A DNA stretch of 32,000 bases from Nitrosospira multiformis ATCC 25196 (GTDB lineage Bacteria > Pseudomonadota > Gammaproteobacteria > Burkholderiales > Nitrosomonadaceae), in assembly GCF_000196355.1 (NCBI RefSeq), contig NC_007614.1, positions 2,520,001 to 2,552,000 on the forward strand, in the 5' to 3' direction. Shown piece by piece: positions 2,445-22,608 of the stretch; the first letter of the stretch is position 1, and every line of letters begins with the position of its first letter. Made by a program: the position numbers and the translations under genes. The notes beneath the pieces are model-generated. The model made no database searches. It saw only the letters and a program-made list of their open reading frames with translations, and was not told the origin of the DNA.

Positions 2445-2597
2445 CCATTAAGGTATGAGTTAAGGCTAAAGCGGGGTCATTGATAAATGCGCCGATGAAA
2501 GAAAGAGCGATATAGCTTCGTAAATATAACGTAACTGCTCGCTAAGTGGTAAGGCAAACGTTCCCTGAGAACATGGCGAGGAAGGTCGGTACTGTCC

Positions 2598-3554
2598 TTA
2601 AAACATCTCAACAGTGTATACCCATAGCCGATTGATGCCCGAACTCGTCTCTCGAGCATAAGTTACACATTCGGGAAGGATTAAGCTGACACGACTACGC
2701 GCACGTCCTTCGAGGATCCAGAAAATCGTAAATCCCAAAACTTGCACCTTTGTTGCAAGCGGTGACAGATATATATTTGCTCCTACTTCCTTACGATCAA
2801 TATCTCGTACAATCTCTTGGATCACCGCTGCAGTTGCAAAAGGATCATTTGCCGGAGCAAATCGTCTATTTGTCCTCCAATCATTGGATAACGCCACCTC
2901 ACCGCTTTCAGCGGCGCGTATCACGCTTTGTTGATACATATCAGGACTGAGCGAGGGAAATGCAAATATTGGGAACACAACAGCGTTGTCATGCGTGCTT
3001 GCTACTTCGTTGACTAGTCTATTGTCAAATCCTACCCCGAGCAGGAGATAATCTCGGCTTGTTGACGAGTTGCTACCTGCCATTCCACGTACGGGACGGA
3101 CTGTTCCGCTTGTAGTCGTGGTGAAATGGGTATCCTCATGCTTCATGTAATATTGTGGTTCTGAATACACTGCTTGAAATTCTCGAAGACCCAAATAAGC
3201 CAACTTAACTATTAAAAATGCTAGAACGTGCCGCATAAAGCCGGTAACATCAATGCATAGAGTCTTGTTTGTAAGGTCCCCCATTGCTGAAATCAATGAA
3301 TTTACTTGCCCAACCTCATCTAAATTGAGGGGACGTACAACCTCCCCACCGGATGGCTCCTCCAGTGGCAAATACCCATACTCAGGATGAATAAGCCAAA
3401 TTTTCTTATTCGCCCGAATTTGGTCAAAAACAACTCGGACACGATCACTTGAGTTAAATGCAGAAACGAAGATGTCAAAGAATGGTATTTCGTTTACGAT
3501 CCGGGTAGCGGAAACTGAACGTCGATAAAAACAAGCATAATCCATCCTGTTCAA
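2598..3554 (-). CDS. Unknown alpha/beta protein, last gene of the island operon; possible CARF-like Rossmannoid sensor domain at the N-terminus
   Basis: 318 aa with alternating hydrophobic-strand/helix pattern: FDIFVSAF, KIWLIHP, TLCIDVTGF, YLLLGVGF, AVVFPIFAF, NIYLSPLATK, VSLILPE. DVTGFMR (aa 102-108) fits the [DN]x[ST]xxx[RK] signature. The start is uncertain: TTG 3554 overlaps the upstream TGA (3551-3553), or ATG 3545. I recognise no catalytic motif. Confidence 0.72.
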   Translation of the reverse strand: MNRMDYACFYRRSVSATRIVNEIPFFDIFVSAFNSSDRVRVVFDQIRANKKIWLIHPEYGYLPLEEPSGGEVVRPLNLDEVGQVNSLISAMGDLTNKTLCIDVTGFMRHVLAFLIVKLAYLGLREFQAVYSEPQYYMKHEDTHFTTTTSGTVRPVRGMAGSNSSTSRDYLLLGVGFDNRLVNEVASTHDNAVVFPIFAFPSLSPDMYQQSVIRAAESGEVALSNDWRTNRRFAPANDPFATAAVIQEIVRDIDRKEVGANIYLSPLATKVQVLGFTIFWILEGRARSRVSLILPECVTYARETSSGINRLWVYTVEMF

Positions 3555-5566
3555 AACAATTCCGTTTGCCCAACTAGAGCTCGTGACTTGGAGAACGGGT
3601 TGTTCCAGCGGTACTCAAGCGCGCCTAATAGCATATCAAACTCCCTGCGACCATCTGGTTTAAAGATTGCATTTACTAATTCTCGTGACAGCGAAACATC
3701 TCCTCGACGCGCAATCGGCAGGCCCCATCTTGGGGCAAGTATAGGATTAATCTGTATCTTGCGATTGAGGGCTTGGCTATTTCTAGCAGGACGACCTTCA
3801 CTCAGTTCAAATAGAAATGATGAGTTTAATGCTGCGCGAAGGATAGTTCGAGCGGGCTCAGTAAGATATGAATCAGCAAAACTCACTACGGCCGGTGACA
3901 CTTCGGGAACATTCAGGGAATATCGTGCTGTACGAAGTAACTGAGCCAGCCTAGCTATGGACTCACGAACCACTTCCGTTTCGGTGCCGAGTATTACATC
4001 CTGCTCAAACACAAACCGGGCCGCTTCTAAAGCTGCCTCCGTTTGCCGATTGACAGATAACGGGCTACCTTTGATGAAATCTTCATTCCTGAATGCCGCA
4101 ATTGCATATGCGCGTTCTAGAATGATCAGGAGATTCCGAGGATTTCCGCAAGACATTCTCACAAAAGTGTCAAAACCAGCGTACGGAACACCGCGTGAAC
4201 GTTTGTAGTCTCTACACAGTTGTGCTACTAGATCTTGAGCGTAATGACCGTACGCTATCGTATACGAATCCTTTTTGCCGGCGACTCCGTCAAGAAACCT
4301 AACTGCTGACTCGCGGATCTCATTGGCAACGTCGCGTGCATCTGAAGGCCTAGAAGCTTTCTTACAGAAGCAAAGTATATTCAGCTTCTGGATTAATAGT
4401 GGAAATCCTTCCACCAAAGCTGTGAGTACGGCTGATACATTAAGATTGCCTCTGTCGTCGTTTTGACGCCATAAGGACAAAACGGTTTCAAAGGCTTGCA
4501 GATGAGTTTCTTGACCTTCTGTAATGAAGGACTTTAAGAAGGATTGATAGGCATTCCCCGATTCGACTTCAGCGAAGTGACGACTGGGATCAAAATCTCC
4601 CATTGAGCTACCGAGATCGTTCTCGGACAAGCCGACAGACGTTAATCTTTTGTAGACAAACTTTCTTGCAAACTCAGGATAACCTTTGAACGCTCTCAGT
4701 ATGTCGTCAAGATGTACAGTTTTGAACTCAGAACCTTCTCGATTCTCTTCACCGTCTGCCATAGTCGCATGGGTCTTCATGGCATAGAGTCTGCCACCCA
4801 CTCTAAAAGTAACACGTCCCTCCGCGTACCGAATGAAGCTATTTACGACTTGCTGCTGCTGCTTAGAGAAATTCTCTATCTCATCAAGAAGATAGATTAA
4901 TGAAAGTCCGCGGAGACGCGGATGCCAAACCTCGATACATTTCCGCAAATTTAAACATAGAGCACCAACCGAAAAGGGAATCCGTAGCTCCAGTGTTCCA
5001 ATAAATGCAGCATTGTTTACTCTTTCATCAATGTCAACTCGGATTCGTTGCACCCATGACTGAAACTTATCAACCGTTTGTAATGCCAGAACCTCTGGAT
5101 CTGAAACCACACGGCAAATTTCCTGCATAAAAGCTTTGTCGTCGAAAGATTCGTTTTTTGCAGATTGCCTAACATCAAGTATTGCATCTAAAACACTTTC
5201 GACTATTCGTAACTCTAAGTATGTAGCGAAAGCTTGCCGCCACTTTGCTGGCGTATCGCTGATCAACTCGAAGCGGGAGGCGTCAAGGCCGTTTGCACGA
5301 AGAAAAATGGCAAGAAACTTTTCCCTATTCAAAATCTCGATTCCATTTTGCTGTGGATTGCGGAGTCGAGTTGCTTTATAGGAGTAATAACGCAATATAT
5401 GTGTCTTACCAGAACCCTTGCCCCCTAGAATCAGTTTTGATAGTTGAGATTTAGGCTCGATGATTTGATTCATCGCCGCAGAACCTATTTCAACCCAGAG
5501 CGTATTGATCTGATCGTCTGTGTAGTCGGACGCCTTTAGCAATGCAAATGGATTTCCCTGTTTCAT
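3551..5566 (-). CDS. P-loop NTPase, 671 aa (AAA/ORC-Cdc6-like or STAND-like guess) with a long helical C-terminal region
   Basis: Walker A is GGKGSGKTH (aa 48-56, nt 5399-5425, verified by reverse translation). Walker B is LIYLLDEIEN (aa 223-232). The N-terminus begins NPFALLKA. About 400 aa of mostly helical sequence follow. ATG at 5566. Confidence 0.85.
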   Translation of the reverse strand: MKQGNPFALLKASDYTDDQINTLWVEIGSAAMNQIIEPKSQLSKLILGGKGSGKTHILRYYSYKATRLRNPQQNGIEILNREKFLAIFLRANGLDASRFELISDTPAKWRQAFATYLELRIVESVLDAILDVRQSAKNESFDDKAFMQEICRVVSDPEVLALQTVDKFQSWVQRIRVDIDERVNNAAFIGTLELRIPFSVGALCLNLRKCIEVWHPRLRGLSLIYLLDEIENFSKQQQQVVNSFIRYAEGRVTFRVGGRLYAMKTHATMADGEENREGSEFKTVHLDDILRAFKGYPEFARKFVYKRLTSVGLSENDLGSSMGDFDPSRHFAEVESGNAYQSFLKSFITEGQETHLQAFETVLSLWRQNDDRGNLNVSAVLTALVEGFPLLIQKLNILCFCKKASRPSDARDVANEIRESAVRFLDGVAGKKDSYTIAYGHYAQDLVAQLCRDYKRSRGVPYAGFDTFVRMSCGNPRNLLIILERAYAIAAFRNEDFIKGSPLSVNRQTEAALEAARFVFEQDVILGTETEVVRESIARLAQLLRTARYSLNVPEVSPAVVSFADSYLTEPARTILRAALNSSFLFELSEGRPARNSQALNRKIQINPILAPRWGLPIARRGDVSLSRELVNAIFKPDGRREFDMLLGALEYRWNNPFSKSRALVGQTELF

Positions 5567-5578
5567 CCTCGCCCTAAA

Positions 5579-6535
5579 TTAGTCATAGAACTTCTCATAC
5601 CGGACAAATACCGGATGCCAAGGAATGTTCTCGCCGTTATACCAAAAAATAGGCGGCGCATTGTCAGGAGTATTATGGCTGAATGCCAACAGCAATTGCC
5701 CATGCCTGTAGCCTGTAGGCCATTTGCGGTTCAGTTCCTTTCCATACCCTACCGCGATTTTTTTTAGTTGTTCTAACTTAAACCATGCTGGAGCGCTTCG
5801 GAAATAACGTGAATCTGAGGAAAAAGCCTTATATGAGTTATCTAGTTCGAATAGACAACTCACATGTGAGCCGAATAAAGCAGGCGAAGCCAATTTGGTC
5901 AATCCCGTTGTTGTTCCAAACAGGGAAATGAATCGCATTTCTACATTAGGACTTCCCTTTCGAATTAGGTTGAGATAAGGTTCCAAATACTCGGCCACCT
6001 GCGTACCGGAGCCAACGAGATCATCAAAAAAAACAAATCTCGTGACAGTAGGATCCTTTTGCCGATAACCCTGCTGATTGTTATCTCTGCATGGCTCAAA
6101 GGCGCTAGTGAAATCTGCGAAGAGATCTTTCTGTAGATTATTCACCTGCCGGAAGTAATACAATAAATGTGCTCCACTCTCGGCTGGGTTACCTATGCCA
6201 ACAAAACGAGTGGCCCGGAGCTCGGAGTGATACTGCTGGCGTACAAGCAAAAAATCCTTTGTTCCATTGAGATTACGGCGTATCCGCTGCAACATTGGCG
6301 ATTCAAAGTGATCTCGATAAATTGAGCGGAGCATTTCGCGAATTAGCCTCTTGTTAAAATACATGTACCTGCTCAATAAAAAAAGTACATACCGCTTCTC
6401 TTCGTCTCCGCTCTCGAAAGAGCCTTTAAAGTTACTGAGCCACATCTCAATATCAGCCCAATGAACTTCTCTTTCCCAGGCTTCCTGAACAAGGACTCGA
6501 ATTTTGTCCTCTAGCAGTGACATCTCGTCAAGCAC
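5579..6535 (-). CDS. Phosphoribosyltransferase-like (PRTase-fold) protein with an N-terminal helical extension
   Basis: 318 aa. FVFFDDLVGSGTQ (aa 167-179, nt 5999-6037, verified) matches the PRPP-binding loop pattern of type I PRTases: hydrophobic strand, two acidic residues, then a small/Thr-Gly-rich loop. GTG start at 6535 is preceded by GAGGGAG 6 nt upstream; an alternative ATG lies at 6523. Confidence 0.78.
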   Translation of the reverse strand: MLDEMSLLEDKIRVLVQEAWEREVHWADIEMWLSNFKGSFESGDEEKRYVLFLLSRYMYFNKRLIREMLRSIYRDHFESPMLQRIRRNLNGTKDFLLVRQQYHSELRATRFVGIGNPAESGAHLLYYFRQVNNLQKDLFADFTSAFEPCRDNNQQGYRQKDPTVTRFVFFDDLVGSGTQVAEYLEPYLNLIRKGSPNVEMRFISLFGTTTGLTKLASPALFGSHVSCLFELDNSYKAFSSDSRYFRSAPAWFKLEQLKKIAVGYGKELNRKWPTGYRHGQLLLAFSHNTPDNAPPIFWYNGENIPWHPVFVRYEKFYD

Positions 6536-6537
6536 GT

Positions 6538-7941
6538 TTAGCTCCCTCTATACAAACTCTTCGTGAAAACGAGAACACTTTCCCGTGAAATAATAGAAGC
6601 AGTCTTGTTTCTCTTTGTCATCAAGCCACGGGATTTTATGTGATCAATCAAATGCAGGGTTATCTCAAATCGAAGATCAGTTAACACTTCCTTCAAGTAT
6701 TCATCATTCCTCAAGGTTTCACCACAGACCTGATTATTTCCTACTACTACAATGATTGTTCCTCCGTCTTTGGTTACGCGCGCGACTTCCACCATTGCTT
6801 GCCGCAACTCTATCAAGTACGTCCTGGTTATTCGTTCCCTTGTTCTATTTTTTTGCCCAACCCGATCTAAAAGATTCTCGAAAGAACTTGAAAGACTTCC
6901 ATTCGATATTTGCCAAGATGCCGGCACATGCTCTCTCCCAATAGAGATACGTTCGAGATGTTTTAGTGTGTCTGGAGATGCATAGCCCAACCAGTTCAAT
7001 GAAAGACTGCTGGCACGAACATATTTTTGCGCACTTCCATAAGGCGGCGACGTAATCACCAAATCCACGCAATTGTCTTGAAGCTTTGTGCCTGAGACAG
7101 ACTCTCTGAGATCACGAGCATCACTACCGACGATTTTGGTTCGTGCCCGGCAACCGTTAGCAGCTCGATTAGTCTGCTGGATTCGTTGGATATTTGTGTC
7201 TACAGTTTTTTGGAACTCTGCAATCACGTTAACGTCTTGAAGCCATTCCAAGCGTTCGGAAATTATTTTAGAAGCTACGTTTCCAAGACTAGGTTTTATC
7301 CGTAGTCGCACTGGCACTGAAATGCGTGGATCAGCAAAACTGAGACGGCGTGCGGTCACTGATAAGCAAAGCTCAAAAAATTCCCGCTCGATATTTCTCG
7401 GCAATTCCCTAATTGCCCTCACAAGCTTTTCGAGGGCAATTTTAATTCTCGGCGAATACCAGAGATGATCGTTTATAACATGTATCGTTGGGGCGGTTCG
7501 AAAAGACTTTGCCCTACAACATATGCTCTTAGCAAGTTGTACCAAGACCGTCTCATTAAATGTAGTTGTCTTAACTTTAGCGATCAACAGTGCCAAGGGA
7601 TTTGCATCTGCTATTAGCGGTGTATGGCCAGCAAGAAACGCTTCAAGAGCGACTGTTCCCGATCCGCAAAATGGATCCAAAACCATCGCCTCCTTTCCAA
7701 CCAATGAACTACAACGTAAAAAAAAGTTGGCTATGTGTGGTAAAAGTTTCGCTGGGTACGGATGAAGTAGGTGAGAGTATTGGTCTCCAATCTTTACCCA
7801 ATCGACAAGCGAGCGAAAATCAACTTCAACCGGCTCGCCGGTAGTAATATATGCCGTTTTGAGCAGATTTAGCATTTCCGAAGTGTCTATCTTTTCTGGC
7901 ATCCTTTGAGAATACACTTCTTCTAATCCAGATAGATTCAC
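6538..7941 (-). CDS. DNA methyltransferase (amino-MTase, N4-cytosine or N6-adenine), motif order I then IV with a ~200-aa insert
   Basis: 467 aa. AdoMet motif I is VLDPFCGSGTVALEA (FCGSGT = aa 91-96, nt 7654-7671). Catalytic motif IV is ITSPPYG (SPPY = aa 298-301, nt 7039-7050, verified). RVTKDGGTIIVVVGN lies downstream. GTG start at 7941; the next in-frame ATG is at 7902. Confidence 0.88.
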   Translation of the reverse strand: MNLSGLEEVYSQRMPEKIDTSEMLNLLKTAYITTGEPVEVDFRSLVDWVKIGDQYSHLLHPYPAKLLPHIANFFLRCSSLVGKEAMVLDPFCGSGTVALEAFLAGHTPLIADANPLALLIAKVKTTTFNETVLVQLAKSICCRAKSFRTAPTIHVINDHLWYSPRIKIALEKLVRAIRELPRNIEREFFELCLSVTARRLSFADPRISVPVRLRIKPSLGNVASKIISERLEWLQDVNVIAEFQKTVDTNIQRIQQTNRAANGCRARTKIVGSDARDLRESVSGTKLQDNCVDLVITSPPYGSAQKYVRASSLSLNWLGYASPDTLKHLERISIGREHVPASWQISNGSLSSSFENLLDRVGQKNRTRERITRTYLIELRQAMVEVARVTKDGGTIIVVVGNNQVCGETLRNDEYLKEVLTDLRFEITLHLIDHIKSRGLMTKRNKTASIISRESVLVFTKSLYRGS

Positions 7942-7952
7942 AAATCTATCTG
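7929..7952. promoter_or_regulatory. Perfect 10-bp inverted repeat (CAGATAGATT-caca-AATCTATCTG) centred on the methyltransferase GTG start codon
   Basis: Read directly. Arms are 7929-7938 and 7943-7952, with spacer 7939-7942. The GTG start is the complement of 7939-7941. It could be a dimeric-protein operator or an mRNA hairpin occluding the start. Confidence 0.55.
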
Positions 7953-8184
7953 CCCATCAAATCCAACAATAAAGCCACCAAGAGAAGATCTCATTAACGA
8001 CTGGCATCAATAAGCTTCTCTTCTTAAAACTTCTTAATGGATGTACCAGAAAGCAGGGCATTGATAGTATTGGAATTGAACTTCCCGGATGGGAGACGGA
8101 TGTATTTATTAGGTCTTGAATTTTTCAGTTCTTTCACTCGTTTAGGCCGGAATAGCTTTTTCAAAGACCACGACTAGGAGAAAG

Positions 8185-8349
8185 ATGCATTGTGTTTTCA
8201 TCAACTTTTGCCCCAGATTGTTAGATTTTCATCCATCAAAACTGGTTAAGCTATGCAAAAAGTTCAATGCTTGTGTTCCGATCCAAACTCGCTGCACAAA
8301 TAATGTTTTTAGACGTATAAATACCTTTCTAAACCAAGACAGCAAGTAA
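8185..8349 (+). CDS. Candidate small Cys-rich basic protein (54 aa), below the track cut-off
   Basis: ATG 8185 is preceded by AGGAG (8176-8180, 4-nt spacer). Sequence: MHCVFINFCPRLLDFHPSKLVKLCKKFNACVPIQTRCTNNVFRRINTFLNQDSK, with TAA at 8347-8349. It ends 5 nt before the bidirectional terminator hairpin. No family recognised. Confidence 0.3.
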   Translation: MHCVFINFCPRLLDFHPSKLVKLCKKFNACVPIQTRCTNNVFRRINTFLNQDSK

Positions 8350-8354
8350 AAATT

Positions 8355-19019: not shown

Positions 19020-20294
19020 TCACATTTGCAGCTGGAATGCCAGTTTAAAAACATCGACCTTGTCACCTGTTACATCCGGCGCATAGTTGATGCCTTTGGT
19101 GCGAAGATCACCGTGCTGGTAGTACGCTGAAATACGGGCGTTGAAGCCGCTGATGACATAATTCACCCCAGCCTCGATTTCTTCCCGTTTGCTGCTGTTG
19201 TCAGGCTGAACTCTGGTAAATCTCCCATAAGGCTGAAATTGCCCGATCCCTACCTTGACGGGAAGCAGGTAGAGCCCGGTGACACCCCATGATTTTCCGT
19301 CGAATATGCAGAAGCAGTCCGGATCGGCAAAGGCCAGCGGCGAGTAATTGGCATAGAATTGCTTGTAATCACCGTTGACGGTAACTACACCCATATTTTT
19401 TGGCAGGACCTTTTCAAACAGGACATCGCCGACGAGACCCAGGAAATCGCTGGGATGCGCAAACGATCCGGCACCATCCTTTTGATATGAAGTACCGGCC
19501 GCGAGCGCCAGAATGTCGCCAGCCTGGCCGAAGTAGGTATTACGGGTGTAATAACCCGGATTCGGCTCGGGGTTCAGGAAATTGTAGGTAAGACGCCCGG
19601 CCCATGCCACACTATCCCCCTGATTGGGTCCCATGCGCGCTGCCGTGGATGACTGCAAGCCCCTGTACACGCCGAGCGCGTAGCCCAAGGTGCCTTTGAT
19701 GAAGCCGGGCTCGACGCTCCCCCAGAAGGTCCCACCGTCATCATGTCCATACCGGCCTGCGCCGAGGCTGCCGAATTTAGTACTGAATCCTTGGGGGAAG
19801 AACGGCGTTTTGATGGCATCGTGTGTCGCGTGATAAAAAGGGGCACTCAATTCGCCCCGCTCCGTGGGCACCAGCATGCGCCCACCCCAGAAATTGACAA
19901 AGCGGTTGATCTCGACCTTTCCGATTGCGGCCAGAACGTTGTAGGACATCCTGGGGGTATCCTCGGGATGGGTGTTATTGCAGAAAGTACATTCGGTGTA
20001 GCTTTCGAATTTGACATACTTGTGGATCTGTCCGTTGAGATAGACACGGGCATTGTCGATGCTGAAACCGCTCTGGAAATTACCGGTATCCCTGTTTTCG
20101 ACCCATACGCCCGAACCACGGAAACCGATGCCGAGAGTAAACCACTTGGTGTCATCGATAACCCACTTGGGACCATCCGCAATATGACCATTCATCGCGA
20201 ATGCCTCGGGCAGCAAAAACAGAAAACTTAATGCCAGCATAGTGCTGAAGTATTTCCGGTATATCCCCGAGCGGATTTTGCTGATGTATTTCAT
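19020..20294 (-). CDS. Putative outer-membrane beta-barrel porin-like protein
   Basis: 424 aa with a signal peptide ending PEAFA. It is rich in Gly/Tyr/Asn alternating amphipathic stretches, with a C-terminal beta-strand (VDVFKLAFQLQM). The family was not identified. Confidence 0.55.
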   Translation of the reverse strand: MKYISKIRSGIYRKYFSTMLALSFLFLLPEAFAMNGHIADGPKWVIDDTKWFTLGIGFRGSGVWVENRDTGNFQSGFSIDNARVYLNGQIHKYVKFESYTECTFCNNTHPEDTPRMSYNVLAAIGKVEINRFVNFWGGRMLVPTERGELSAPFYHATHDAIKTPFFPQGFSTKFGSLGAGRYGHDDGGTFWGSVEPGFIKGTLGYALGVYRGLQSSTAARMGPNQGDSVAWAGRLTYNFLNPEPNPGYYTRNTYFGQAGDILALAAGTSYQKDGAGSFAHPSDFLGLVGDVLFEKVLPKNMGVVTVNGDYKQFYANYSPLAFADPDCFCIFDGKSWGVTGLYLLPVKVGIGQFQPYGRFTRVQPDNSSKREEIEAGVNYVISGFNARISAYYQHGDLRTKGINYAPDVTGDKVDVFKLAFQLQM

Positions 20295-20411
20295 AGTCGA
20301 GTCAATGAATTCTTCTGGGTGATTTCCGGAAGCGGCCCACCCTGTTCAATCTCCGGAAAGAATCCCGAAGGAGAAGATGGGCCGGAATGCGAAGGTATAA
20401 AGGAAAGGCGG
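20232..20411. repeat. Copy B of the duplicated leader plus 5'-coding module, at the porin-like gene
   Basis: See copy A. The encoded N-termini are MKYISKIRSGIYRKYFSTMLA (B) and MKNISKIRSGIYRKYFSAMLA (A). Copy B ends 12 nt from the stop of the upstream beta-propeller gene. Confidence 0.8.
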
Positions 20412-20422
20412 AATTGCCGGGA

Positions 20423-21928
20423 TCAGCGCAGCCCGCCTGCGGCAAATATGCCGTGCGGCTTGACAAGACCGTCACGTGGCCCCCATACCTTGGTGACGGT
20501 ATCCGTTTCCGTATCGATCTTCAGCACATATCCGGAAACCCAGCTTGCCACCAGCAAATAGCGATTATCCGGGGTTGGACTGATGGTATGCGCCACGGAG
20601 TATCCACTCGGGAGTTCGTAACCGGGCCGCAGCCTCTTGATGAACTGGGGGTTTTTACGATCGGTCAGGTCGAATACCGAGATGTAGCCGTCATTGCCGA
20701 ATGTAAAATCGAGAGTATCTTCCTCCGCGATGTAGAGTTTGCCATTCACCACGGCAATGTCGGATGCAGAACGGAGAACCCCTCGCTTACCGACTTGATT
20801 GGTAGGCCAGAGTATCTGTTTCGCGGTTCCTTCGTGGGTATCAAGCAGCCATACGCTGGGTGGAATGATGTAACTCGTGGTCGAGGGCGTCAGGGAGGTT
20901 TTGTCGAATTGCATCGTTGCGGTAACGGCATACCGCTCGTCCAGCCAGTATACGAAATGGGTAAAAGCCGCATGCATCGTCTCGTTGCCCAGCATGATCT
21001 GGCCGACAGCCTGCAATTCGCCTGTTTCCCTGTTCGGCTTGTATACATCGATTACACTGTTATCGAAAAAGTAACCTGTGCCAAGACCAATGGTGCCCGA
21101 TTTATTGAAGTTAACCCCATGGGTTTGCTCAGTGTAACCAGGGATGACAATCGGATCAAAACTCACAAACTGGTTGGTTTTGTGGTTGATGACCCGCACC
21201 CTGTCCGATGTAAATTCCGTAAAGTAGAGAAAATCGGAGTACGGCAACAGGGTCGGACCGTGAATCTGCGTTCCCCTGCCTATGAGCCAGTTGGGAACGG
21301 CCTGGACCTGGTTGACCGGCTTGACAAACGGTAATTCCGAAGGCCTGTTGGGAGAGTCTGCTGCAAGTACTGCCTCGACCGTCAGTGAGGCGTAGCGGGT
21401 ATCCCAGTTGATTTCGTTCACACCCAGGGCGATGATGTAGGAAGGGTGATCCGGCGTATTGTCGGAGGTGATATAAATCTTTTTCCCCTCGGGCATTACC
21501 ACCGTGTGCTGCAGGGGAACATTTCCAGGCCAGCCAGGAAGCGTGGTGGGATCCAGGATGATCAACTTGTCGTTTTCATAGTTGAAGAGATAGACCATCC
21601 CGTTGTGGTAGTCGATCGCCGTCGCGATGGGCTGGATATGCTCGTTATAAACATTCGGATATTGGTCGAGTGGAAGGGACTGAGGAGGTACTTGCCCCTT
21701 GTTCGCGTAATTATCATCGCCCGCATACACCTTGCCATCCGCGTCACGCAGGCTGTCGATTCTCGTGCGTATCTTGCCGGCGTTTGCCGTCGGAGCAGCG
21801 GTGCTTGATGAAGTGTTTTCTTTTAAGAAGGAGGGATTATCTGCGGCATGAATTGCACTTGCAGATAGTGTCAGCATGTATAAGCCCGCCTGTAAGAACA
21901 GACGGGAATTCTTCTTGATTAAAGTCAT
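20423..21928 (-). CDS. Exported beta-propeller protein (YVTN/NosZ-N-terminal-like guess), possible copper enzyme
   Basis: I chose ATG 21928 (MTLIKKNSRLFLQAGLYMLTLSASAIHA/AD signal peptide, AAGGGGA upstream) over the track's 22063. Repeated blade-like segments: KIYITSDN, FLYFTEFTSDRVRVIN, KLYIAEED, GYISVFDL, RYLLVASWVSGYVLKID. His residues recur near blade starts. Confidence 0.7.
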   Translation of the reverse strand: MTLIKKNSRLFLQAGLYMLTLSASAIHAADNPSFLKENTSSSTAAPTANAGKIRTRIDSLRDADGKVYAGDDNYANKGQVPPQSLPLDQYPNVYNEHIQPIATAIDYHNGMVYLFNYENDKLIILDPTTLPGWPGNVPLQHTVVMPEGKKIYITSDNTPDHPSYIIALGVNEINWDTRYASLTVEAVLAADSPNRPSELPFVKPVNQVQAVPNWLIGRGTQIHGPTLLPYSDFLYFTEFTSDRVRVINHKTNQFVSFDPIVIPGYTEQTHGVNFNKSGTIGLGTGYFFDNSVIDVYKPNRETGELQAVGQIMLGNETMHAAFTHFVYWLDERYAVTATMQFDKTSLTPSTTSYIIPPSVWLLDTHEGTAKQILWPTNQVGKRGVLRSASDIAVVNGKLYIAEEDTLDFTFGNDGYISVFDLTDRKNPQFIKRLRPGYELPSGYSVAHTISPTPDNRYLLVASWVSGYVLKIDTETDTVTKVWGPRDGLVKPHGIFAAGGLR

Positions 21929-22608
21929 TTCAGATTCCCCTTGTATGCTTTGAATGAATAAATCCAACGCACTGGAAGAAATTTCCATCAGGGAGCCGGG
22001 ATGCCAAAAACAGCTTCTTTCGGTTTGATACCGATCACTGACAGAATGAGGTATTTCCACCAAGCTTCTTTTTCTTGGATTATGAAAGCGCAGTGCCCGA
22101 GTCCCTCGTCACCAGGAAGCGACTTCGATACAACTACGGTCCGAAAGGTTAGCACCGCCGCGCTGGATTCAAACCGGGGAATAAGAAGGGGAAGATCCCG
22201 CTAATTGCTGGGTATGAGCTTGTATGAAGCGATGAAGAGGTGTATTGCTGTCCGGAATAAAATGAGGAGCAATCTCGAGAACTTCATGGGCAAAAGACAG
22301 CCCGTTTTGCGAGGACAGAATCTTCTGGGAAAAACCTTGATCGTCATTTCCGCAAAAGCGGAAATCCATTGGTTTGTCATTACATTAAAAAGATCTGAAG
22401 ACACACTTTTGCGGGGATGACGACACCTTGATGAATCCGGTGCAGAATTCATCACGCCGGTGTTCCCGCATATGCAAATGGTTTTATGAGAACTGCCCGA
22501 TTTGGGAAACCGGACAGGAACGCTGTCTATTGCAGCACAGGGGAAAGGATATCAGTCAATGCGGGAAGCCACACTGACTCTGTGGCTTATATGCGCTCGA
22601 ACATGCAC

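Follow-up and report, generated by a model that had tools for sequence, protein, structure and literature searches.

A PRTase-CE family protein of Nitrosospira multiformis belongs to a fixed, mobile four-gene cassette that is a candidate nuclease-free anti-phage defence system

In Retron-Eco11, a type III-A retron, defence requires all three components, among them a phosphoribosyltransferase (PRTase) effector; activation lowers phosphoribosyl pyrophosphate (PRPP) by about 50%, and the toxicity and metabolomics assays used a catalytic-site mutant as their inactive control (PMC12746101). ShosT, the defence PRTase of the ShosTA system, binds PRPP, perturbs purine metabolism and needs its acidic pair for toxicity, which is lost in a DD>AA mutant (PMC11961720). 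Here we describe a gene of Nitrosospira multiformis ATCC 25196 whose product is a very divergent member of the PRTase-CE family, and the four-gene cassette of which it is a part. The cassette lies in a stretch of 32,000 nucleotides of contig NC_007614.1 (positions 2,520,001 to 2,552,000 of the forward strand; hereafter the window, with positions counted from its first letter) and encodes, in this order, an N6/N4 DNA methylase, the PRTase-CE protein, an ORC/CDC6-like AAA+ ATPase and a CARF protein termed CARF6. These four genes form a fixed, horizontally mobile unit, which is most likely a nuclease-free, restriction-modification-like system of anti-phage defence.

The assignment to PRTase-CE is firm. 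The protein matches the Pfam model of that name, PF24390, with an E value of 2.5e-65, its residues 29-312 covering positions 1-253 of the 253-position profile, and the score of 221.3 bits (cut-off 27) lies far above anything expected by chance. The retron PRTase_III-A model of PADLOC matches it as well (1e-29). It has the same sequence (100% identity) as hypothetical protein SAMN05216403_106104 of the same strain, and the UniRef label of the protein is already "PRTase-CE". "CE" is the Aravind group's abbreviation of "conflict effector". The family was reportedly named by that group (Nicastro et al. 2023), whose abstract is said to predict that PRTase-CE proteins break nucleotides down at the glycosidic bond. 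The family is moderately large: of 1.84 billion cluster representatives, 2614 match it at an E value of 1e-3 or below and 268 at 1e-30 or below. The close subfamily is rare in genomes.

A reading of the window from its letters alone (the sequence-only reading) had proposed a PRTase fold for this protein from a PRPP-loop pattern at amino acids (aa) 167-179 and had called it atypical for a metabolic enzyme, pointing to a helical N-terminal extension and a C-terminal tail unlike that of salvage enzymes. Each of these features holds. In the AlphaFold2 model (predicted local distance difference test score, pLDDT, of 82.9), residues 4-107 form five helices, and the first core strand follows at 109-113. 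When the model was compared with the Protein Data Bank (PDB) by Foldseek, every match at an E value of 1e-3 or below was a type I PRTase (XGPRT, OPRT, UPRT and APRT), at 9-18% identity, the best being the XGPRT structure 5xtk with an E value of 1e-5. A profile search of the PDB, built on 25 homologues, recovered no PRTase.

Three sequence blocks are kept across phyla: GNPxESGxHLLYxFRQxN, FxDDxxGSGxQ and Gx14P(D/N)NxP, the last followed by a tryptophan-rich tail. The second block includes the PRPP-binding motif FVFFDDLVGSGTQ, which translation places exactly where the sequence-only reading had put it and which holds the predicted catalytic acidic pair D171-D172. Identity across 33 homologues from several phyla is at least 97% at F169, D171, D172 and Q179 and at least 85% at G175, S176 and G177; D171, D172 and G175-S176-G177 are also invariant in two proteins described below, one from a divergent variant on a plasmid and one linked to a retron. 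An hhalign alignment lines the motif up with the PRPP motif FIVIDDLVDTGGT of Escherichia coli Gpt, a weak match with an E value of 0.0018 over 43 columns. The first block lies directly after the first core strand of the model, in a loop that we infer to be the pyrophosphate (PPi) loop; at its GNP, ESG, H123, FRQ and N132, identity among the 33 homologues is again at least 97%. The third block is specific to the family, and the conserved tail that follows it comprises W298, W306, P308 and R312. This C-terminal stretch (SHNTPDN...W...WxP..R..K) is one of the family's best-conserved segments, and its pLDDT falls below 50 at residues 289-292 and 304-318. Taken together with the PF24390 and retron III-A matches, the N- and C-terminal motifs therefore make the seemingly atypical ends the signature of a known immune-type PRTase family.

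The cassette PRTase is homologous to the effectors of type III-A retrons such as Retron-Eco11, which have in common with it the motifs WLxNF, DD-GSG and Gx14P(D/N)NxP. "Gx14PNNxP" has been described as a hallmark of retron PRTase-like effectors (PMC12746101), and its counterpart here is G275-x14-PDNAP. The chemistry, PRPP depletion leading to abortive infection, is likely the same, whereas control is not: a type III-A retron is governed by its complex of reverse transcriptase and multicopy single-stranded DNA, the cassette by an AAA+ ATPase, a CARF protein and a methylase. Unlike a type III-A retron, the island holds no reverse transcriptase reading frame or RVT_1 domain, no msr/msd RNA (there is no Rfam match in the window) and no wHTH-PRTase_assc domain. 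We therefore rejected a retron assignment, given that reverse transcriptase, noncoding RNA and winged helix-turn-helix domain are all lacking and that the PRTase ends at residue 318. A type III-A retron-like locus does occur among the homologues, on the 526-kb plasmid p1 of Bacillus sp. PGP15 (locus L036, 5677-8306), where a PRTase-CE domain is fused to wHTH-PRTase_assc beside a reverse transcriptase. ShosTA and PsyrTA (RqlHI) are toxin-antitoxin defence systems, the ShosT toxin being a PRTase. Unlike them, the cassette PRTase has a helical N terminus in place of a pyrophosphatase domain, and no DprA-like antitoxin gene stands next to it; on these two grounds identity with ShosTA was rejected. 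The NCBIfam model DS32_1, a PRTase-like antiphage model, gives a weak and partial match of 24.8 bits against a cut-off of 250.

The cassette fills a low-GC island (Table 1) with 44.3% GC, compared with 56.0% in the left flank and 56.4% in the right, as computed over the window. The foreign composition noted in the sequence-only reading is thus real, and so is the operon with a methylase and an ATPase. The four genes are tightly packed on the minus strand. A spacer of 2 nucleotides separates the methylase and PRTase genes; one of 12 nucleotides, with the Shine-Dalgarno-like sequence GCGAGG, separates the PRTase and ATPase genes; and the CARF6 start codon overlaps or abuts the ATPase stop codon.

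Table 1. Cassette genes, their motifs and the surrounding island, by position in the window
Feature	Position	Strand	Basis or boundary
Low-GC island, ~5.9 kb	2470..8353	.	between comEA-like gene 2142-2444 and ssb terminator hairpin 8354-8388
Gene 1, DNA methyltransferase, 467 aa as listed	6538..7941	-	Pfam, PADLOC, PHROG
Methyltransferase motif I, DPFCGSGT	7654-7677	-	motif located in translation
Methyltransferase motif IV, SPPY	7039-7050	-	motif located in translation
Gene 2, PRTase-CE family PRTase-like protein, 318 aa, GTG start	5579..6535	-	PF24390, PADLOC, AlphaFold2, Foldseek
Predicted PPi-loop region, conserved loop GIGNPAESGAHLLYYFRQVN, aa 113-132	6140..6199	-	translation, conservation, model position
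PRPP-binding motif FVFFDDLVGSGTQ, aa 167-179, with predicted catalytic acidic pair D171-D172	5999..6037	-	conservation, hhalign
Family-specific C-terminal motif G275-x14-P290-D-N-x-P294 (GYRHGQLLLAFSHNTPDNAP)	5654..5713	-	translation, conservation
Gene 3, ORC/CDC6-like AAA+ ATPase, 671 aa	3551..5566	-	Pfam PF24389
ATPase Walker A, GGKGSGKTH	5399-5425	-	motif located in translation
ATPase Walker B, LLDEIEN	4871-4891	-	motif located in translation
Gene 4, CARF6, two-lobed CARF-like sensor, 318 aa from TTG start	2598..3554	-	PADLOC CARF6
CARF signature D-x-T-x-x-x-R (DVTGFMR)	3231-3251	-	motif located in translation

The conservation of this arrangement was assessed in relatives gathered in two ways, with the PRTase in genomes (one genome for each of 185,579 species) and with the ATPase in metagenomes (30-55% identity). 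The complete order of methylase, PRTase, ATPase and CARF6 on one strand was found in 97 of 113 related loci, spread over at least four phyla, and 14 of the 16 incomplete loci are cut by contig ends. Of the 33 genome loci, 29 are complete with the same order and strand, two are cut by contig ends, one is degraded and one lacks the methylase; the corresponding figure for the metagenomes is 68 of 80, all 12 others being truncated at the ends of contigs. The four proteins show correlated divergence from locus to locus (rho 0.72-0.93), and no fifth conserved gene was found among the cassette loci. The hosts of the genome loci belong to the Beta- and Gammaproteobacteria, Actinobacteria, Bacteroidota and Spirochaetia; they include Pseudomonas, Burkholderia, Acinetobacter and Moraxella as well as rhizobial plasmids, and plasmid-borne cassettes occur in Moraxella, Sinorhizobium, Rhizobium and Bradyrhizobium. 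In all 27 loci compared, the GC content of the cassette lies below that of its flanks, by 6 to 21 points. The PRTase-CE gene is thus found in a neighbourhood of the conflict or immune type, within a fixed cassette that occupies low-GC islands, resides on plasmids and has prophage genes nearby. No homologue was found among 50,697 phage records, nor in E. coli genomes by DNA search.

The methyltransferase, whose true start may lie a few codons downstream of the listed one, matches the Pfam models N6_N4_Mtase (2.1e-11) and UPF0020 (2e-11), the PADLOC model MTase_II over nearly its full length (1.4e-39) and PHROG 18146, DNA methyltransferase (6.2e-36), and its motifs I and IV are at least 97% conserved in 31 homologues. 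The SPPY form of motif IV is a variant common in N4-cytosine methyltransferases, although it is not diagnostic. Residues 5-626 of the ATPase match Pfam PF24389, ORC-CDC6-like, at 3.4e-132 (442 bits). Eighteen divergent homologues all retain the residues G48, G51, G53, T55, D228, E229, E231 and N232; with Walker A and Walker B residues so conserved, gene 3 probably encodes an active AAA+ ATPase.

Gene 4, called by NCBI as a protein of 315 aa with an ATG at 3545, has no Pfam match, and residues 4-317 of its product match PADLOC CARF6 (PDLC01914) at 4.6e-142 over profile positions 2-310 of 311. The AlphaFold2 model (pLDDT 88.3) shows two Rossmann-like lobes and no further domain, and Foldseek gave weak but consistent matches to the CARF domains of Cam1, Csm6, Can2 and Card1 (E values from 3e-3 to 4e-2) and a weak full-length resemblance to Cap4 SAVED. 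The hallmarks of CARF domains are a serine or threonine ending strand 1 and the pattern [DN]x[ST]xxx[RK] after strand 4 (PMC4012209). In the 315-aa numbering of CARF6, S28 ends the strand 23-29 and D99-V-T101-G-F-M-R105 follows the strand 96-99; both are invariant in 25 sequences, so that a ligand pocket has probably been maintained. Sequence-profile searches of the PDB with the ATPase and with CARF6 gave no useful match. Pfam, PADLOC, NCBIfam and PHROGs revealed no nuclease or other toxic domain in methylase, ATPase or CARF6, which leaves the PRTase as the sole candidate for an output enzyme; a cryptic nuclease in the ATPase, a protein known here from sequence alone, cannot be fully excluded. 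Three of the four gene families are already catalogued, as PF24389, PF24390 and PADLOC CARF6.

As a whole, the cassette resembles several described systems and coincides with none of them. A type II restriction-modification system would account for the methylase with its motifs I and IV, but no cognate endonuclease was detected, and this identity was rejected given that none of the four proteins belongs to a nuclease family in Pfam, PADLOC, NCBIfam or PHROGs. The bacteriophage exclusion (BREX) system with PglX, BrxC and PglZ is analogous in combining a methylase, an ORC/Cdc6-class ATPase and a non-nuclease enzyme (in BREX the phosphatase-fold PglZ) whose fold as a rule handles small phosphorylated metabolites, in the absence of a restriction endonuclease (PMC12839542). 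Unlike BREX, which has six or more genes, the cassette has four, with the PRTase in the place of PglZ and a CARF protein in addition; PADLOC gave no BREX hit (PglX, PglZ, BrxC or BrxL) for any of the four, and BREX was rejected. Gene 4, with its CARF signature and its resemblance to Cap4 SAVED, recalls the ancillary proteins of type III clustered regularly interspaced short palindromic repeat (CRISPR) systems and Cap4 of the cyclic-oligonucleotide-based anti-phage signalling system (CBASS). Unlike those signalling loci, the island contains no Cas10 or CD-NTase cyclase, no CRISPR array, no cas genes and no effector fused to the sensor; a CRISPR or CBASS signalling locus was rejected, none of the four proteins matching a cyclase. 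The methylation-associated defence system (MADS) was also rejected, its mad2 and mad8 models in PADLOC giving weak and partial matches (1.3e-6 and 2.7e-3), and the Ophion system (OpnC) was set aside as a different defence-PRTase system.

Considering these data, we propose a model in which the cassette operates as a defence system with a nucleotide-directed output. The sequence-only reading had left three roles open to PRTase chemistry, namely, nucleotide depletion, synthesis of a nucleotide-derived signal, and base exchange or modification on nucleic acid; the evidence favours the first, as an attack on the nucleotide or PRPP supply. The features typical of defence loci (transfer, a fixed operon, a methylase, a nucleoside triphosphatase, a CARF protein and a toxin homologue), together with the work on Eco11 and ShosT, lead us to take PRTase-CE as the output enzyme. 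In this model, the methylase would mark the DNA of the host, while the ATPase and the two-lobed CARF protein would constitute a module for sensing and switching. Invasion would be detected through unmodified DNA, through a nucleotide-type ligand bound by CARF6, or through both. PRTase-CE, once activated, would collapse the nucleotide supply through its intact PRPP/ribose-5-phosphate site, either by consuming PRPP or by running a glycosidic-bond reaction on nucleotides, and phage replication would be halted by growth arrest or abortive infection. That PRTase-CE is the output enzyme, the ATPase and CARF6 the sensor and switch, and the methylase the means of self-marking is, in our judgment, fairly probable.

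A divergent variant on plasmid p4 of Moraxella osloensis (NZ_CP024184.1; locus L035, 5231-10754) fits this type of output. There, the order is dUTPase_2, PRTase-CE, ORC-CDC6-like ATPase, CARF6-like protein and N6_Mtase: a dUTPase_2 (PF08761) nucleotide pyrophosphatase stands directly upstream of the PRTase, and an unrelated N6 methylase at the 3' end shows that the methylase module has been replaced and relocated. The added dUTPase_2 fits a nucleotide-directed output. One possibility is that the hydrolysis of nucleoside triphosphates to nucleoside monophosphates and PPi would supply substrates for a reverse PRTase reaction. A NACHT ATPase gene lies just upstream of this variant.

Several points weigh against the proposed model. 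The drop in PRPP caused by Eco11 is modest, and no defence PRTase has a known base substrate (PMC12746101, PMC11961720). An output that is diffusible and depletes nucleotides cannot by itself spare methylated self DNA. The methylase, moreover, is missing from one locus: in Arthrobacter sp. Leaf337 (locus L028, 9971-17406) the other three genes stand as a triad with no methylase detected within ~3.5 kb on either side. This is the only intact locus that lacks the methylase, and the triad is followed by a gene for a 1107-aa PLDc_2-ResIII-Helicase_C-DUF3427 protein. Furthermore, the PRTase is never exchanged for another effector in the 80 metagenome loci, which sample the ATPase clade down to 30% identity, so that the argument from effector swapping is unavailable. 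Full-text searches of the literature, which did not extend to the defining papers on PRTase-CE and CARF classification, returned no description of the cassette and no experiment on it. Finally, a CARF sensor unaccompanied by a cyclase is unexplained if the PRTase is simply the effector; synthesis of the ligand by the PRTase would account for it.

This last point opens the way for another hypothesis, in which the ATPase senses the invasion and PRTase-CE, with PRPP and a base (or another nucleophile) as its substrates, produces a nucleotide-like messenger. CARF6 would then bind the messenger and, by way of the AAA+ ATPase, affect DNA or replication. Nucleotide messengers are indeed what CARF and SAVED domains sense (PMC4012209), and a role in making signalling nucleotides has been proposed for the Ter-system PRTases (PMC7824862). 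Within the cassette, which has no cyclase, the PRTase is the only enzyme that could make a ligand, and the CARF D-x-T-x3-R and the serine of strand 1 are invariant. On the other hand, CARF6 consists of two lobes only, with no effector domain detected downstream, and the ATPase shows no nuclease domain. The same PRTase family, furthermore, supplies the terminal toxin of retrons, which have no CARF partner, and the variant with dUTPase_2 resembles an effector pair. A role for PRTase-CE in making the signal, rather than in delivering the blow, therefore appears possible but unlikely.

A different answer to the question of the ligand would keep the PRTase as the weapon and turn the methyl mark into the alarm. 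PUA-Calcineurin-CE-HAD, another nucleotide-depleting defence of the "CE" type, is triggered by m6-dAMP released from degraded methylated host DNA (bioRxiv 10.64898/2026.01.15.699771). By analogy, CARF6 might bind methylated mononucleotides released when a phage degrades the chromosome and, with the ATPase, trigger a PRTase that drains PRPP or nucleotides; the cassette would then read its own methyl mark through small molecules and not on DNA. The analogy is one of idea: PUA-Cal-HAD uses the Dam methylase of the host, whereas the cassette has its own, and the PUA, calcineurin and HAD folds are unrelated to those found here. Such an alarm has its precedent in PUA-Cal-HAD and would be compatible with all of our observations, yet it is conjectural throughout, and we give it less credence than a signal-making PRTase. 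If true, it would be self-contained, and CARF6 would be the first CARF protein with a ligand not made by a cyclase.

The third of the roles listed above would direct the PRTase-like protein to nucleic acid, where it might excise, exchange or add a base or phosphoribose on DNA or RNA, either as the "restriction" arm acting on unmethylated DNA or within a hypermodification pathway shared with the methylase and the ATPase. The restriction-modification-like composition of the cassette, with no recognizable nuclease, would suit such an activity, and the conserved helical N-terminal region and the tryptophan-rich tail could form a polymer-binding surface. PRTases of the ComFC type are involved in DNA uptake, and classic PRTases are able to bind single-stranded nucleic acids (PMC5512222). 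However, the complete loop for binding PRPP or a 5'-phosphate is conserved, as in small-molecule enzymes; the relatives that have been studied alter PRPP or purine metabolism and not DNA directly; the dUTPase_2 of the variant points to free nucleotides; and Pfam detects no DNA-binding domain in the PRTase protein. We consider this role very unlikely.

An ordinary purine or pyrimidine salvage or ComFC-type PRTase that came to lie beside a methylase by chance, to which the type I fold, the PRPP motif and a comEA-like competence gene ~150 bp beyond the cassette might point, is effectively refuted: no Pribosyltran or apt, hpt, gpt, pyrE, upp or comFC model in Pfam or NCBIfam matches at an E value of 1 or below, and no orthology to such an enzyme was found, as the sequence-only reading had expected; the identity to solved PRTases is low, the gene travels with the same three partners in low-GC islands across phyla, the genome search yielded just 33 loci, and comEA lies outside the island, in DNA of native GC content.

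If the cassette does defend its host, it would represent a restriction-modification-like system without a nuclease, whose weapon is a PRTase aimed at PRPP or nucleotide pools. It would also extend the regulatory contexts of the PRTase-CE toxin from two, retrons and toxin-antitoxin pairs, to three, and would raise for the CARF field the question of what ligand serves a CARF/SAVED-like sensor that has no cyclase. For annotation, gene 2 is better described as a PRTase-CE immune-effector candidate than as a nucleotide-salvage enzyme. The value of the cassette, as judged from comparative data, would lie in an unusual combination of parts within a well-delimited defence candidate and not in a new kind of system; as a compact, self-contained unit of four genes and 5.4 kb, the cassette should be easy to clone and test.

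The surroundings of related cassettes offer further observations. In Burkholderia gladioli (locus L037, 1-8242), the cassette adjoins the tape-measure, gpU, gpX and gpD tail genes and a lysis gene of a P2-like prophage, beyond which lie a gene for a Dam-like D12 methylase and an insertion sequence element; such regions of P2-like phages are known to carry defence genes. Directly after the same cassette (CP002599.1; 14013-16634 of the locus) follow three co-directional genes for proteins of 287, 233 and 351 aa, the last a ThiL/SelD-like AIRS-domain protein. This three-gene module, which has no PADLOC match, recurs at loci L002 and L038 and, more distantly, at L008, and an AIRS homologue with 41% identity lies near the cassette, but upstream of it, in a metagenome-assembled genome of Rhizobacter. 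The module was rejected as a core part of the cassette, being found beside only some of the Burkholderiaceae cassettes, where it may be an accessory module or a passenger of the neighbouring island. In five loci from Pseudomonas, Flavobacterium and Bacteroidales (L013, L025 and L029-L031), a ThyA-like open reading frame (ORF), judged by eye, stands just upstream, which may reflect a shared insertion site or coincidence. The copy in an uncultured Actinomycetota metagenome-assembled genome (locus L033, 8963-13675) gave only fragmentary tblastn matches for all four genes and looks like a decaying, pseudogenized cassette.

Within the window itself, the genes around the island read as native housekeeping genes. 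On the comEA side these include a cysK/cysM-like gene, and on the other side ssb with its terminator hairpin, a gene for an MFS transporter and uvrA; the remaining genes, phoB/phoR, NUDIX, SCO1, dnaJ, dnaK and purB, are likewise housekeeping genes. No integrase, tRNA or convincing flanking direct repeats were found at the island edges. Upstream of the methylase gene lies an AT-rich intergenic region of ~410 bp (7942-8353) with no ORF of note; it contains no strong match to the sigma-70 consensus, and no gene for a C-protein-like helix-turn-helix regulator is present. Farther along the window, two minus-strand ORFs of 424 aa (19020-20294) and 546 aa (20423-22063) have no Pfam match at an E value of 1e-5 or below. 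The second of these overlaps an ORF of 315 aa on the opposite strand (20387-21334), and one of this overlapping pair is therefore probably spurious. Both minus-strand ORFs lie in a region where the GC content dips to 0.49-0.52.

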